DNA of 64,000 bases, from the NCBI RefSeq assembly GCF_054482595.1, contig NZ_CM137008.1, one strand, 5' to 3'. Made by a program: the position numbers and the translations under genes. The notes below the pieces were generated by a model, which was not told where the DNA came from, ran no database searches, and saw nothing but the letters and a program-made list of their open reading frames with translations. Positions 5,340 through 54,318 of this stretch are shown here, in pieces. Position 1 is the stretch's first letter; every line of letters begins with the position of its first letter.

Positions 5340-6386
5340 ATGGAGTTTTTCAAAAAGACGGCACTTGCCGCACTGGTTATGGGTTTTAGTGGTGCAGCAT
5401 TGGCATTACCCAATATCACCATTTTAGCAACCGGCGGGACCATTGCCGGTGGTGGTGACTCCGCAACCAAATCTAACTACACAGCGGGTAAAGTTGGCGT
5501 AGAAAATCTGGTTAATGCGGTGCCGCAACTGAAGGACATTGCGAACGTTAAAGGCGAGCAGGTAGTGAATATCGGCTCCCAGGACATGAACGATGATGTC
5601 TGGCTGACACTGGCGAAAAAAATTAACACCGACTGCGATAAAACCGACGGTTTCGTCATTACTCACGGTACCGACACGATGGAAGAAACCGCTTACTTCC
5701 TCGACCTGACGGTGAAATGCGACAAACCGGTGGTGATGGTCGGCGCAATGCGCCCGTCCACGTCCATGAGCGCAGACGGTCCATTCAACCTGTATAACGC
5801 GGTAGTGACTGCAGCTGATAAAGCCTCCGCTAATCGTGGCGTGCTGGTGGTGATGAACGACACCGTACTGGATGGGCGGGATGTCACCAAAACCAACACC
5901 ACCGACGTAGCGACCTTCAAGTCTGTTAACTACGGTCCTCTGGGTTACATTCACAACGGTAAGATTGACTACCAACGTACCCCGGCACGTAAGCACACCA
6001 GCGACACGCCGTTCGATGTCTCTAAGCTGAATGAACTGCCGAAAGTCGGCATTGTTTATAACTACGCTAACGCATCCGATCTTCCGGCTAAAGCACTGGT
6101 AGATGCGGGCTATGATGGCATCGTTAGCGCTGGTGTGGGTAACGGCAACCTGTATAAAACCGTATTTGACACTCTGGCGACCGCCGCGAAAAACGGCACT
6201 GCAGTCGTGCGTTCTTCCCGCGTACCGACGGGCGCTACCACTCAGGATGCCGAAGTGGATGATGCGAAATACGGCTTCGTCGCCTCTGGCACGTTGAACC
6301 CGCAAAAAGCGCGCGTTCTGCTGCAACTGGCTCTGACGCAAACCAAAGATCCGCAGCAGATCCAGCAGATCTTCAATCAGTACTAA
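5340..6386 (+). CDS. ansB: Periplasmic L-asparaginase II
   Basis: 348-aa ORF with signal peptide and asparaginase motifs (ILATGGTIAG, HGTDTMEETA). Confidence 0.97.
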   Translation: MEFFKKTALAALVMGFSGAALALPNITILATGGTIAGGGDSATKSNYTAGKVGVENLVNAVPQLKDIANVKGEQVVNIGSQDMNDDVWLTLAKKINTDCDKTDGFVITHGTDTMEETAYFLDLTVKCDKPVVMVGAMRPSTSMSADGPFNLYNAVVTAADKASANRGVLVVMNDTVLDGRDVTKTNTTDVATFKSVNYGPLGYIHNGKIDYQRTPARKHTSDTPFDVSKLNELPKVGIVYNYANASDLPAKALVDAGYDGIVSAGVGNGNLYKTVFDTLATAAKNGTAVVRSSRVPTGATTQDAEVDDAKYGFVASGTLNPQKARVLLQLALTQTKDPQQIQQIFNQY

Positions 6387-10179: not shown

Positions 10180-10884
10180 TTATTTTTTAGAGTAATCACG
10201 CGCACCAAAAATTGCAGTGCCGATACGAACCATCGTGCTACCTGCCGCAATGGCGGCTTCCATATCGTCCGACATTCCCAGAGAGAGCGTGTCGATATGC
10301 GGGTAGCGCGTTTTCAGTCCGGCAAATGCTACAGCCATTTGGCGTGCAACTTCAAACTGCCTTACATATTCTGACTCAGGCGCAGGGATTGCCATCAGCC
10401 CGCGCAGACGTAAACGCGGTAGTTCAGCGACCGCAGCTGCCAGCTCGTCCAGTTCTGCCAGTTGAATCCCGGACTTACTGTTTTCATCACTAATATTAAT
10501 TTGAATCAGTACGTTAAGAGGGGGAAGTTCTGCCGGGCGCTGATCGTTGAGGCGGGTAGCAATGCGCAAACGGTCGATGGTATGACACCAGTCGAAATGC
10601 TCTGCCACCAGGCGGCTTTTATTAGACTGCAACGGGCCAATAAAATGCCATTCTAATCCTGTTACGCCCAGTTCCTGAAAGTGGCGAATTTTATCTACCC
10701 CTTCCTGAACGTAGTTTTCACCAAATTGACGCTGCCCGGCATCAATGGCTTCTGCGATGGCGCTCGCAGGTTTTGTTTTACTGACTGCAAGCAGCGTAAT
10801 TTCTTCTGGAGAACGGCCGCAACGCGTTGCAGCCGCTGAGATTTTGTCCCGGACCTGTGCCAGGTTATGCGCAATATCGTTCAT
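10180..10884 (-). CDS. yggS: PLP-homeostasis protein YggS
   Basis: 234-aa ORF matching YggS (MNDIAHNLAQVRDKISAAATRCGRSPEEITLLAVSKTKP...). Confidence 0.95.
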   Translation of the reverse strand: MNDIAHNLAQVRDKISAAATRCGRSPEEITLLAVSKTKPASAIAEAIDAGQRQFGENYVQEGVDKIRHFQELGVTGLEWHFIGPLQSNKSRLVAEHFDWCHTIDRLRIATRLNDQRPAELPPLNVLIQINISDENSKSGIQLAELDELAAAVAELPRLRLRGLMAIPAPESEYVRQFEVARQMAVAFAGLKTRYPHIDTLSLGMSDDMEAAIAAGSTMVRIGTAIFGARDYSKK

Positions 10885-10901
10885 TTTCCGAGGATCTTAG
10901 T

Positions 10902-11882
10902 ATGAATATGGAAGAAATTGTGGCCCTTAGTGTAAAGCATAACGTCTCGGATCTACACCTGTGCAGCGCCTGGCCCGCACGATGGCGCATTCGCGGGCTA
11001 ATGGAAGCTGCGCCGTTTGATGCGCCGGACGTCGAAGAGCTACTGCGGGAGTGGCTGGATGACGATCAGCGGGCAATATTGCTGGAAAATGGTCAGCTGG
11101 ATTTTGCCGTGTCGCTGGCGGAAAACCAGCGATTGCGCGGCAGTGCGTTCGCACAACGGCAAGGTATTTCTCTGGCGTTACGGTTGTTACCTTCGTGCTG
11201 CCCGCAGCTCGAACAGCTTGGCGCACCACCGGTATTGCCGGAATTACTCAAGAGCGAGAATGGCCTGATTCTGGTGACGGGGGCGACGGGGAGTGGTAAA
11301 TCCACCACGCTGGCGGCAATGGTTGGCTATCTCAATCAACATGCCGATGCGCATATTCTGACGCTGGAAGATCCTGTTGAATATCTCTATGCCAGCCAGC
11401 GATGTTTGATCCAGCAGCGGGAAATCGGTTTGAATTGTATGACGTTCGCATCGGGATTGCGGGCCGCATTGCGGGAAGATCCTGATGTGATTTTGCTCGG
11501 AGAGCTGCGTGACAGCGAGACAATCCGTCTGGCGCTGACGGCGGCAGAAACCGGGCATTTGGTGCTGGCAACATTACATACGCGTGGTGCGGCGCAGGCA
11601 GTTGAGCGGCTGGTGGATTCATTTCCGGCGCAGGAAAAAGACCCCGTACGTAATCAACTGGCAGGTAGTTTACGGGCAGTGTTGTCACAAAAGCTGGAAG
11701 TGGATAAACAGGAAGGACGCGTGGCGCTGTTTGAATTGCTGATTAACACACCCGCGGTGGGGAATTTGATTCGCGAAGGGAAAACCCACCAGTTACCGCA
11801 TGTTATTCAAACCGGGCAGCAGGTGGGGATGATAACGTTTCAGCAGAGTTATCAGCAGCGAGTGGGGGAAGGGCGTTTGTGA
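10902..11882 (+). CDS. yggR: PilT-family type IV pilus retraction ATPase homolog
   Basis: ORF 10827..11882; start at the internal ATG (MNMEEIVALSVKHNVSDLHL...); Walker A GATGSGKST. Confidence 0.9.
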   Translation: MNMEEIVALSVKHNVSDLHLCSAWPARWRIRGLMEAAPFDAPDVEELLREWLDDDQRAILLENGQLDFAVSLAENQRLRGSAFAQRQGISLALRLLPSCCPQLEQLGAPPVLPELLKSENGLILVTGATGSGKSTTLAAMVGYLNQHADAHILTLEDPVEYLYASQRCLIQQREIGLNCMTFASGLRAALREDPDVILLGELRDSETIRLALTAAETGHLVLATLHTRGAAQAVERLVDSFPAQEKDPVRNQLAGSLRAVLSQKLEVDKQEGRVALFELLINTPAVGNLIREGKTHQLPHVIQTGQQVGMITFQQSYQQRVGEGRL

Positions 11883-36774: not shown

Positions 36775-36895
36775 TTGCCTGATGCGCTACGCTTATCAGG
36801 CCTACACGTATCCTGCAATATATTGAATTCGCAGGTTTTTGTAGGCCGGATAAGGCGTTCACGCCGCATCCGGCATGACAAAGCGCACATTGATA
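36775..36895. repeat. BIME (two inverted REP units)
   Basis: gcctgatgcgctacgcttatcaggcctac ... gtaggccggataaggcgttcacgccgcatccggca. Confidence 0.8.
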
Positions 36896-52879: not shown

Positions 52880-53018
52880 AAAGCCCTCACCGAAGCGAGG
52901 GCTTGAAGGAGAAGGGTTATGATGCGACTTGTCATCATACTGATTGTACTGTTACTCATAAGTTTCCCAGCTTATTAACAGTCAGTCTCAGGGGAGGAGT
53001 AATCCTCCCTTACCCTTA
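52880..53018 (-). ncRNA. Sib-type antisense sRNA (antitoxin), copy 1; boundaries approximate
   Basis: Minus-strand -35 TTGACA (53053-53048), 17-bp spacer, -10 TAATTT (53030-53025); transcript would run antisense across the ibs ORF; 3' end estimated from the usual Sib length. Confidence 0.45.
52919..52978 (+). CDS. Ibs-family type I toxin, 19 aa (variant copy, Pro17)
   Basis: Read by hand: ATGATGCGACTTGTCATCATACTGATTGTACTGTTACTCATAAGTTTCCCAGCTTATTAA = MMRLVIILIVLLLISFPAY*; SD GAAGGAG upstream; below the ORF-track size cutoff. Confidence 0.75.
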   Translation: MMRLVIILIVLLLISFPAY

Positions 53019-53271
53019 CTCACTAAATTAGGTTAAAGAATCAACGATGTCAATCAGGGCGATGCGGGATGTATCGCCCTGAACCGATCATTTGATAGAC
53101 ACTTCATCGCCCACGTTTACTGCCGTAATTAATCCCTTATCCCTGCAATGTGTGTCTGTCTTACATGACGTTTTACGAGTGCGCTCGAAGAAAAAATTTA
53201 AAGGTAGATCAATGCGTTGTGCTTATTTAAAGAGAGTTTACGATGGCAGGGCAGCATGGGGCTGTAACGGT

Positions 53272-53410
53272 AAAGCCCTCACCGAAGCGAGGGCTTGAAG
53301 GAGAAGGGTTATGATGCGACTTGTCATCATACTGATTGTACTGTTACTCATAAGTTTCAGCGCTTATTAACAGTCAGTCACAGGGGAGGAGCAATCCTCC
53401 CTTACCCTTA
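53272..53410 (-). ncRNA. sibC: SibC-type antisense sRNA (antitoxin), copy 2; boundaries approximate
   Basis: Same promoter-like elements as copy 1, shifted by 392 bp (-35 at 53445-53440, -10 at 53422-53417); serA-ygfA intergenic position corresponds to K-12 sibC/rygC. Confidence 0.45.
53311..53370 (+). CDS. ibsC: Ibs-family type I toxin, 19 aa (IbsC-like, Ser17)
   Basis: Read by hand: MMRLVIILIVLLLISFSAY*; same SD and context as copy 1; matches my recollection of K-12 IbsC. Confidence 0.75.
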   Translation: MMRLVIILIVLLLISFSAY

Positions 53411-53470
53411 CTCACTAAATTAGGTTAAAGAATCAACGATGTCAATCAGGGCGATGCAGGTGTGTCGCCC

Positions 53471-54082: not shown

Positions 54083-54266
54083 CAGATAAGAAGGGAATCT
54101 CCGAGATGCCGCCGCAGGCTGTAACCCTTGAACCCTTGGTTCAAGGTGAATGTGTCGTCGCAGTTTTAAGGCTTCTCGGACGGACCGAGCATGCTCACCA
54201 ACCGCGGAGCGCCACATTCTTGTGGTATGAAATATCGGCTCAGGGGACTGGCCCGCTTGCGAACAT
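54083..54266 (-). ncRNA. ssrS: 6S RNA
   Basis: Minus strand reads AUUUCUCUGAGAUGUUCGCAAGCGGGCCAGUCCCCUGAGCCGAUAUUUCAUACCACAAGAAUGUGGCGCUCCGCGGUUGGUGAGCAUGCUCGGUCCGUCCGAGAAGCC...GGCAUCUCGGAGAUUCCCU, matching E. coli 6S RNA; lies between zapA and ygfA. Confidence 0.92.
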
Positions 54267-54318
54267 CTCAGAGAAATTTTGTCTTCACGGTTACTCTACC
54301 ACAGTAAACCGAAAAGTG

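Follow-up and report, generated by a model that had tools for sequence, protein, structure and literature searches.

The junction between the divergent genes yggS and yggR is probably a conserved interleaved regulatory module in which each gene has its promoter within the first codons of its neighbor, a reading to which we assign a probability of about 60%. In the window, by which we mean the whole 64-kb stretch of DNA that was analyzed, yggS occupies positions 10180–10884 on the minus strand and encodes a PLP homeostasis protein of 234 aa, while yggR occupies positions 10902–11882 on the plus strand and encodes a type IVa pilus ATPase of the PilT/PilU family with 326 aa. The start codon of yggS, read as CAT on the plus strand, is located at 10882–10884 and the ATG of yggR at 10902–10904, so that the two are separated by a spacer of only 17 bp (TTTCCGAGGATCTTAGT, 10885–10901). 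The initial annotation had pointed to this distance, and it is borne out by the open reading frames, the RefSeq annotation, the orthologues, the family profiles and the PilT alignment. The RefSeq starts and the 17-bp gap agree in NZ_CP019359, an identical E. coli genome, and in K-12 MG1655.

Both proteins match their families over the full length from these starts. YggS aligned to TIGR00044 with 347.5 bits (residues 1–229 on profile positions 1–229), and YggR aligned to TIGR01420 with 465.2 bits (cutoff 319.1; residues 2–325). Residue 1 of YggR aligns to residue 1 of P. aeruginosa PilT (PDB 3JVU), and the canonical PilT motifs, namely Walker A, the Walker B/Asp box, the His box and an AIRNLIRE-type motif, are present as GATGSGKST, DPDVILLGELRD, TGHLVLATLHT and AVGNLIRE, the last replacing AIRNLIRE. 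By its sequence, yggR is thus a putative pilus-retraction motor gene of the PilT/PilU family. The first ATG of yggR is kept in 30 of 30 related loci, and a start further downstream, as the initial annotation had allowed for, is contradicted by this conservation and by the PilT alignment. The ATG at codon 3 (10908) is missing in loci L026, L027, L035 and L036. A start at this codon and an in-frame TTG extension from 10827 were both rejected on the basis of conservation, Shine-Dalgarno spacing and the PilT alignment.

The Shine-Dalgarno sequence of yggR, GAGGA on the plus strand (10890–10894), lies 7 nt 5' of the ATG, and a purine-rich equivalent is found in all loci with a compact gap. Within the spacer, positions 10885–10895 are nearly invariant and positions 10896–10901 differ among genera; the spacer carries essentially only the ribosome-binding information of yggR. 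To place the gap length in context, we sampled 28 divergent gene pairs from the 64-kb window and 150 kb of K-12, in which the gaps ranged from 17 to 523 bp. That of yggS–yggR is the smallest, followed by gaps of 55 and 86 bp, in agreement with the earlier remark that the start codons are unusually close. More distant yggS/pilT loci were gathered by a representative search and contig look-ups. The gap is 17 bp in Escherichia, Citrobacter, Salmonella diarizonae, Leclercia and Enterobacter and 14–16 bp in a Klebsiella MAG, Cedecea and two more distant metagenomic relatives. Its length therefore stays at 14–17 bp among genera that have reached saturation at synonymous sites (dS 1.5–2.3).

The promoter of the yggS operon is located inside yggR. 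yggS is the first gene of the yggS-yggT-yggU-rdgB-hemW operon, for which SMRT-Cappable-seq in K-12 reported a transcription start site at position 3095060 on the forward strand, with 242 reads assigned to operon b2951–b2955, in both M9 and rich medium (PMC6131387, Supplementary Data 1/2). Positions 10700–10996 of the window are identical to K-12, and the start corresponds to base 10922 on the minus strand, 21 nt inside the yggR coding sequence in codon 7. A position-weight scan independently picked the same base from the configuration TGTAGA-17-TACACT: the –10 hexamer TACACT (10929–10934, minus strand) corresponds to yggR codons 10–11 (AGT GTA, Ser-Val) and lies at the correct distance of 7 nt from the start, and the –35 hexamer TGTAGA (10952–10957, minus strand) follows after a 17-bp spacer in codons 17–19. 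The –10 hexamer is unchanged in 23 distinct sequences and is also kept in L035 and L036. The –35 hexamer is nearly invariant, while the third positions 10943 and 10946 within the promoter spacer vary. AGT GTA is kept in all compact-gap loci, whereas L037, with a gap of 168 bp, has TCA GTT. A simple consensus promoter scan of 10300–11500 gave no match on either strand and missed this real promoter too.

Because the operon starts in yggR codon 7, its transcript carries a 38-nt leader (10885–10922, minus strand) that is antisense to the ribosome-binding site and the first seven codons of yggR. The RNA structure of this leader together with the first 47 yggS codons was not significantly stable (z = –1.63), and Rfam gave no match in the junction region. 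We also noted a 9-bp inverted repeat (10798–10806 and 10911–10919), which is marginal by chance, with about 0.08 expected according to a rough estimate. A second, internal start for yggT-yggU-rdgB-hemW was mapped by SMRT-Cappable-seq in yggS codon 189 (K-12 3095662; 10320, minus strand). In the surrounding codons 171–190 the pairwise synonymous divergence falls to 0.09–0.22, and the presence/absence test on third positions was not significant (18 of 19 versus 180 of 202, p = 0.70). A shared bidirectional promoter with overlapping –10 elements was considered and rejected, as this would put the partner start at about 10941, already beyond the yggR ATG, where a plus-strand –10 element is absent.

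Around the two starts, the DNA is conserved at the nucleotide level in a block of about 220 bp (10745–10965) that comprises yggS codons 1–47, the spacer and yggR codons 1–21. The synonymous sites of this block are nearly frozen across the Enterobacteriaceae. With Met and Trp columns left out, third positions varied in 9 of the 19 degenerate codons in yggR codons 1–21, compared with 270 of 274 elsewhere in the gene (p = 7e-11), and in 24 of 43 in yggS codons 1–47, compared with 174 of 178 elsewhere (p = 3e-12). Likewise, the block is at least 99% identical in 5425–5426 of the 5426 matching complete E. coli records, a level that equal-length mid-gene controls reached in 41 (mid-yggR) and 2864 records. 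Part of the synonymous conservation in yggS codons 1–16 could serve translation initiation of yggS itself and not yggR.

We asked whether the block might instead encode a feature of the plus strand, either a 51-codon open reading frame (10745–10900) translationally coupled to yggR, which ends 2 nt before its ATG, or an intrinsic terminator insulating yggR from antisense transcription. The latter was suggested by a terminator scan, which found a hairpin with a G+C-rich stem (10751–10770, –8.9 kcal/mol) followed by a T-run on the plus strand. However, several genera have ATC in place of the ATG of the reading frame, and Citrobacter lacks its stop codon. Its third positions moreover coincide with those of yggS, so coding on two strands cannot explain why they are frozen. 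The stem of the hairpin is broken by a G-to-T change in most Citrobacter and the T-run by an ACA-to-ACC change, and the Term-seq data list no 3' end at K-12 30952xx. Given these losses and the lack of an Rfam match, both forms of this explanation were rejected, and we regard it as extremely improbable.

The yggS side of the interleaved module thus has a mapped start, and the initial annotation, which had placed each promoter inside the opposite gene, was correct for this operon, its start lying within yggR and not in the 17-bp gap. For yggR, the same location is suggested by geometry and conservation. Its promoter would lie within the first ~50 codons of yggS, and a start at the edge of the spacer, driven from a –10 element in the first yggS codons, may also be envisaged. 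The position-weight scan yielded two hypothetical candidates on the plus strand. One is a sigma-70-like configuration TTGTTT-18 nt-TAATTT (10773–10802) with a predicted start at ~10809, which is weak although its score of 4.65 is the best on the plus strand and belongs to the top 0.2% of window configurations. The other, TTGTCC-16 nt-TATGCG (10844–10871) with a predicted start at ~10878, has invariant hexamers, a variable spacer at 10854–10855 and a –10 element without the final T.

Expression data for yggR (b2950) are consistent with very low activity. The SMRT-Cappable-seq tables contain no transcription start site, operon or transcriptional context for this gene, while both neighboring genes are present there. 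This absence is soft evidence, since the library was size-selected for more than 1 kb and the yggR mRNA would be ~1.0–1.2 kb. Searches by gene, b-number and coordinate found no entry for a yggR start site in the supplements of Kim 2012 and Cho 2014, and our literature search found nothing on yggR together with yggS or on the regulation of yggR. The gene does appear among the changed genes in microarray studies. In a table of Rho-dependent termination, K-12 3094341 (+) is labeled "antisense yggR" (PMC7815308, Supplementary file 2); converted through collinearity with K-12, this corresponds to 11641 on the minus strand, in the 3' part of yggR. The table names no source for this transcription, which is most simply explained by read-through from ruvX.

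If both promoters are arranged as proposed, the two transcription units would face each other and overlap by at least ~30–40 bp, and PyggS, which is active in M9 and in rich medium, would dampen a weak yggR promoter. Dampening could occur by RNA polymerase occupying the yggR start region, as the –55 to +20 region of PyggS covers approximately 10902–10977, by collision of polymerases, or by antisense pairing, and it would contribute to the very low expression of yggR in laboratory cultures. As no yggR start site was found, we infer the transcript overlap and the interference rather than observe them. The suggestion in the initial annotation that the compact arrangement may keep yggR silent is plausible and consistent with its absence from the SMRT-Cappable-seq tables. 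A permanently silent gene, however, is incompatible with the strong purifying selection on yggR (dN/dS 0.05–0.13), and the gene would still be expressed under some condition, being maintained by selection. Transcriptional interference between face-to-face promoters is reportedly a general mechanism, reviewed by Shearwin, Callen and Egan; the likeness would lie in PyggS, active in both media, facing a weak yggR promoter at short distance, with the initiation region of yggR under the polymerase footprint of PyggS.

Compactness could also be without regulatory consequence. The promoters would then have come to lie in opposite coding DNA after loss of an ancestral spacer, the yggR promoter would be weak or in need of an activator, and conservation would reflect no more than the preservation of two promoters and two reading frames. 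In 35% of divergent E. coli operons, the 5' ends overlap with no function demonstrated for this (PMC4161252). Relatives exist with a 168-bp gap (L037–L039) or with pilT away from yggS (L040 and L041), which shows that PilT does not depend on being tightly linked to yggS. In cells lacking Sxy, other type IV pilus genes of E. coli that have ample intergenic space are just as silent (PMC1635313), among them ppdD, whose intergenic region of 202 bp is of ordinary size, and compactness is therefore not needed to explain the silence of yggR. On the other hand, a polymerase at PyggS would cover the yggR start, and this geometry suggests that interference would be hard to avoid if both promoters fire. 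Moreover, the gap is held at 14–17 bp despite saturated synonymous sites. We therefore consider an absence of regulatory consequence unlikely and favor the interleaved module.

Two Citrobacter genomes (L021 and L025) show what happens when the genes are parted. In both, an AT-rich foreign insert, which had no match among E. coli genomes, separates yggS from yggR and is flanked by a duplication of 293 bp that corresponds to positions 10736–11028 of the window and contains the whole block. The intact yggS retains a 5' fragment of yggR and the intact yggR retains a 5' fragment of yggS, so that each gene keeps its own copy of the block. Most simply, the duplication is a single event in two related genomes, for which we assume a common origin. 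That the split arrangement is viable also fits a compactness of no consequence.

The block contains a perfect palindrome, TGCGA-N6-TCGCA, in yggS codons 39–44 (10753–10768) that corresponds to the core of a CRP-S site and is a candidate regulatory site. Centered 141 bp 5' of the yggR start codon, it also makes up the stem of the hairpin found by the terminator scan. No other perfect match occurs in the 64-kb window, where 0.18 are expected, or in 214 kb of E. coli DNA. The palindrome is perfect in Escherichia, S. diarizonae, Leclercia, Enterobacter kpr-6 and three Citrobacter, carries one mismatch in most Citrobacter, the Klebsiella MAG, Cedecea and L035, and is absent in L036. The joint probability of its codon choices CCT, GCG, AGC, ATC and GCA is about 0.2% under what we take to be the codon usage of E. 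coli, and four of the five palindrome codons are invariant across genera. On sequence grounds, we regard the palindrome as a speculative lead to the regulation of yggR.

According to this lead, yggR would be an unrecognized member of the Sxy/CRP-S regulon alongside ppdD and hofMNOPQ, with CRP and Sxy acting at the palindrome to activate an otherwise inactive promoter embedded in yggS. Besides the uniqueness of the site and its improbable codons, the distance of 141 bp to yggR resembles the 136 bp for the site in the published ppdD band-shift fragment (PMC1635313), and the Citrobacter variant TTCTTCGA... agrees with the ppdD and ppdA sites in their left half. The candidate sites of hofM inside the divergent mrcA coding sequence provide a precedent, and the Citrobacter duplication just takes in the palindrome. 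Furthermore, Cameron and Redfield surveyed only orthologues of H. influenzae CRP-S genes, with no pilT among them (PMC1635313). Several observations argue against this membership. The Sxy papers that we examined do not mention yggR or pilT, and V. cholerae pilT is constitutive and under neither TfoX nor CytR (PMC4581735). The flanks of the palindrome (TTC.../...GGT) are not A/T-rich, and no good –10 element is found at class I distances (–62, –73, –93 to –100). The more distant compact-gap locus L036 lacks the site altogether, L035, Cedecea and most Citrobacter deviate from it at one position, and conservation covers the whole 220-bp block and not the palindrome in particular. We therefore consider a place for yggR in this regulon distinctly unlikely. 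It appears very unlikely that the block is a bifunctional switch, in which the palindrome would put yggR in the Sxy/CRP regulon and yggR, once induced, would be transcribed head-on through the promoter of the yggS operon, thereby reciprocally coupling pilus retraction and the PLP-homeostasis/housekeeping operon.

The arrangement itself belongs to a known class. Overlapping divergent 5' ends are common in E. coli, where Conway et al. (2014) counted 136 such cases among 388 divergent operons, the overlaps averaging 168 nt, and cited ilvY-ilvC and argECBH as classic cases (PMC4161252). As in these excludon-type operons, one transcript at yggS–yggR begins with a stretch complementary to the start of the opposite gene, the transcription start site of one gene lies within the other, and the locus is highly conserved in E. 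coli. In contrast to them, the start codons are 17 bp apart, the promoters lie in coding sequence and not in a shared intergenic region, and the transcript observed is that of the yggS operon alone. The divergent pairing of yggS and pilT is likewise already in the literature, being known in Proteobacteria such as Acidovorax citrulli and other plant pathogens (PMC8787154; reviewed in PMC9605639). Genes and orientation are the same, and in L037–L039 yggS-proC and pilT flank the spacer; however, at 168 bp this spacer leaves room for ordinary promoters, whereas in the Enterobacteriaceae the spacer has shrunk to 14–17 bp and promoter elements became codons. The E. coli CRP-S promoters of ppdD and hofM (yrfD) share with yggR a TGCGA-type palindrome that precedes a type IV pilus gene by ~140 bp (PMC1635313). 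For hofM the candidate sites lie inside the divergent neighbor mrcA, as the yggR palindrome lies inside yggS, and the targets are silent in ordinary cultures. In contrast to these promoters, the yggR palindrome is known as a sequence match, and V. cholerae pilT is not regulated by TfoX (PMC4581735). Taken together, yggS–yggR is a new, conserved example of overlapping divergent transcription units, an ordinary bacterial arrangement.

For annotation, our results imply that both starts are right and that yggR over its first ~20 codons and yggS over its first ~50 consist of dual-use DNA. Codon optimization, "clean" deletions such as Keio-type yggR or yggS knockouts, and insertions at the junction are expected to disturb the neighboring gene. 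In particular, a deletion of the yggR 5' end would remove the mapped yggS-yggT-yggU-rdgB-hemW promoter and could confound yggR/pilT phenotypes. Should the CRP-S lead prove true, the E. coli competence regulon would gain its missing retraction motor; if not, the finding is an ordinary one. The locus cleanly illustrates how promoter hexamers have become fixed as codons in nature, with Ser-Val AGT GTA reading as TACACT on the opposite strand, and the Citrobacter split with its duplicated module is a natural experiment.

The initial annotation had described the start codons of the divergent genes yggS and yggR as only 17 bp apart. Open reading frames and RefSeq annotation place yggS at 10180-10884 (- strand) and yggR at 10902-11882 (+ strand), leaving a 17-bp spacer (10885-10901), and the RefSeq starts in NZ_CP019359 and K-12 (yggR 3094100-3095080, -; yggS 3095098-3095802, +) are exactly those in the window, which confirms this distance. 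No base differs between the window and K-12 MG1655 over 10700-10996, and the 1-kb segment 10400-11400 is 100% identical in several complete E. coli genomes. The gene starts were compared across 30 loci from Escherichia, Citrobacter, Salmonella diarizonae, Leclercia, Enterobacter, one Klebsiella MAG and Cedecea. The start of yggR does not lie further downstream, as the first ATG is kept in 30/30 loci, whereas the ATG at codon 3 is missing from L026 and L027 and from the more distant metagenomic relatives L035 and L036. GAGGA or an equivalent purine-rich motif lies ~7 nt 5' of the first ATG in every locus, residue 1 of P. aeruginosa PilT (PDB 3JVU) pairs with residue 1 of YggR in the alignment, YggR matches the TIGR01420 profile with 465 bits, and the alignment of YggS to the TIGR00044 profile begins at position 1. 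Judged from these comparisons, the annotated starts of both genes are correct. Most genera have a spacer of 17 bp; it is 14-16 bp long in the Klebsiella MAG, Cedecea, L035 and L036.

Spacer lengths were compared for 28 divergent pairs, 7 of them from the window and 21 from K-12, where three samples of 50 kb each were taken. At 17 bp the yggS-yggR spacer is the smallest; the next two measure 55 and 86 bp, and the largest is 523 bp. The arrangement is therefore unusually compact, as had been claimed, in its start-codon distance, but not in its overlapping 5' ends, which are common in E. coli and occur in 136 of 388 divergent operons (Conway et al., PMC4161252). The divergent pairing of yggS with pilT has been noted previously (PMC8787154, PMC9605639).

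The promoter of the yggS operon (PyggS) lies inside yggR. SMRT-Cappable-seq mapped a forward transcription start site (TSS) with 242 reads at K-12 3095060, from which transcripts spanning b2951-b2955 were seen in M9 and rich medium (PMC6131387, Supplementary Data 1/2). This site converts to 10922 (- strand), in yggR codon 7 and 38 nt 5' of the yggS ATG. A position-weight scan independently gives the same base as TSS, with a -35 element TGTAGA (10957-10952, -) and a -10 element TACACT (10934-10929, -) separated by 17 nt, a configuration in the top 0.12% of all those in the window. Codons 1-19 of yggR, as well as its ribosome-binding site, overlap with PyggS and the 38-nt leader. The -10 element, which corresponds to the yggR Ser10-Val11 codons AGT GTA, is unchanged in 23 distinct sequences and retained in L035 and L036; in L037, a relative with a 168-bp spacer, the Ser-Val residues use TCA GTT instead. 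Third codon positions 10943 and 10946, between the two elements, are variable, which is the footprint expected for a promoter.

Synonymous differences are almost absent at both 5' ends across genera in which synonymous sites elsewhere are saturated (dS 1.5-2.3 for yggR). In yggR codons 1-20/21 the synonymous-difference fraction is 0.07-0.13, compared with mostly 0.35-0.60 in the rest of the gene, and 9/19 third positions are variable inside this segment versus 270/274 outside (Fisher p=7e-11). The corresponding fractions for yggS are 0.07-0.23 in codons 1-50/47 and 0.32-0.52 in the rest, excepting a dip at codons 171-190, with variable third positions at 24/43 inside and 174/178 outside (Fisher p=3e-12). 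The conserved stretch spans ~10745-10965. Binning E. coli records by their identity to three 221-bp queries indicates that the same pattern holds within the species: the junction block (10745-10965) is at least 99% identical in all 5426 records and no record falls in another band, mid-yggS (10400-10620) reaches at least 99% in 2864 records and 95-99% in 2561, and mid-yggR (11300-11520) reaches at least 99% in 41, 95-99% in 4353 and 90-95% in 1033. The yggR body (10997-11882) is unusually diverse within E. coli, and the allele of the window is a minority one, since its mid-yggR segment is at least 99% identical in only those 41 records. Its YggR differs from that of K-12 at 7 residues, the first nucleotide difference lying at about 10998, ~30 bp past the conserved block.

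A promoter for yggT-yggU-rdgB-hemW also lies within yggS at ~10320 (- strand), as a published internal yggT TSS at K-12 3095662 converts to window 10320 (SMRT-Cappable-seq, PMC6131387). In the adjoining yggS codons 171-190 pairwise synonymous divergence drops to 0.09-0.22; the third-position test for these codons is not significant (p=0.70), and the match between this dip and the internal TSS is suggestive. A perfect 9-bp inverted repeat, AATTTCTTC at 10798-10806 (yggS codons 27-29) and GAAGAAATT at 10911-10919 (yggR codons 4-6), would allow the yggS leader, when folded as predicted, to pair with the yggS coding sequence; the repeat is marginal by chance and the fold overall is not significant (z = -1.63). 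A 51-codon + strand ORF antisense to yggS (10745-10900), ending 2 nt before the yggR ATG, is probably spurious, since several genera have ATC in place of its start codon and Citrobacter lacks the stop.

In C. youngae CCUG 30791 (L021, 1580-3127) and C. portucalensis A60 (L025, 1385-3127), the junction is split by a ~1 kb AT-rich insert (27-40% GC) that is missing from the close relatives L023, L024 and L029 and has no match among E. coli genomes. It codes for a DUF3828 protein with an N-terminus that is hydrophobic and, by eye, resembles a signal peptide; upstream of this gene it holds a short ORF containing a 'GYCARAV' motif. On both sides of the insert lies a copy of the whole junction block, within a 293-bp direct duplication whose copies are 98-99% identical. 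Each copy runs from yggS codon 50 through the 17-bp spacer to yggR codon 42 (window equivalent 10736-11028). Next to the intact yggS, a yggR 5' fragment with the promoter of yggS is thus retained, and next to the intact yggR a yggS 5' fragment, an arrangement that would be expected if each gene requires the other's 5' coding DNA. Insert and duplication are most simply explained as a single event.

Partial copies of yggR, ~110 in all, are additionally present among E. coli genomes. On plasmid NZ_CP194962.1 (147078-147584), a truncated 5' part of yggR (window equivalent 10887-10965) begins inside the 17-bp spacer and is flanked by an IS200/IS605 transposase gene and a blaCMY-2/ISEcp1-like (IS1380 family) unit. 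ISEcp1-blaCMY-2 mobilisation has reportedly been described, and this fragment may relate to it. Elsewhere in the window, an Rfam scan gave matches at gathering score at 36798-36840, 52903-53445 and 54094-54277: the sRNA ES036 (CssrF), two SIB antitoxin RNAs adjoining ibsC toxin genes, and 6S RNA. Each of these RNAs is expected in this part of the E. coli genome.

The proposal that each promoter lies inside the other gene is borne out for yggS by the mapped TSS; for yggR, geometry dictates that the promoter overlaps yggS. No yggR TSS was found in the published start-site tables searched. While b2949 and b2951 are present, b2950 (yggR) is missing from every SMRT-Cappable-seq table, an absence that is only suggestive because the library was size-selected above 1 kb. 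The best + strand candidates in the position-weight scan are weak (TTGTTT-18-TAATTT, predicted start ~10809; TTGTCC-16-TATGCG, ~10878). The gene is intact and under purifying selection (dN/dS 0.05-0.13) and so must be expressed in some condition. Frameshifted copies occur in Leclercia adecarboxylata NCTC13032 (L028, 3001-3974; stop after 104 codons) and C. amalonaticus AUH_CA_2023_1 (L031, 3001-3981; stop after 44 codons). In both, a different frame carries the remainder of the protein, and either pseudogenes or errors of long-read assembly could explain the finding.

A perfect TGCGA-N6-TCGCA palindrome at 10753-10768, the sole one in the window (0.18 expected) and in 214 kb of E. coli DNA, lies in yggS codons 39-44, and 141 bp separate its centre from the yggR ATG downstream. 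It could be a CRP-S site through which yggR is regulated from within yggS, a speculative reading that we consider unlikely. In its favour, the ppdD site contained in a published band-shift fragment is 136 bp upstream of that gene, two candidate sites for hofM fall within the divergent mrcA, and Cameron and Redfield did not examine pilT, since H. influenzae is without it (PMC1635313). However, yggR is unmentioned in the accessible Sxy literature, V. cholerae pilT is TfoX-independent (PMC4581735), the scan gives no -10 element at class I distances, and the palindrome is degenerate or missing in more distant compact-gap loci. Because the hofM-mrcA spacer is 119 bp, the CRP-S-like sites in the hofM (yrfD) band-shift fragment (L046, K-12 3522752-3523010), at distances of 176 and 257 bp upstream of the gene, are inside mrcA.

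If yggR transcription begins within yggS or at the spacer edge, the yggS and yggR units would face each other. RNA polymerase on PyggS (~-55 to +20, roughly 10977-10902) would occupy the yggR initiation region, and collisions and antisense pairing would reduce yggR output. A Rho termination region antisense to yggR (K-12 3094341, +; window ~11641, - strand; PMC7815308) falls in the 3' third of the gene, indicating that antisense transcription also enters from the far end, ~240 nt in, probably by read-through from the convergent ruvX/yqgF operon. The compact arrangement had been suggested to keep yggR silent; interference from PyggS is a proposed link, but silence does not need it: ppdD and hofM have normal spacers and are silent all the same when Sxy is lacking.

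Taken together, the short start-codon distance is confirmed and the interpretation first attached to it is supported in part. The locus adds a new, well conserved case to an established class, that of divergent transcription units that overlap and have their promoters within coding sequence. In practice, this matters to anyone deleting or recoding the 5' end of yggS or yggR.
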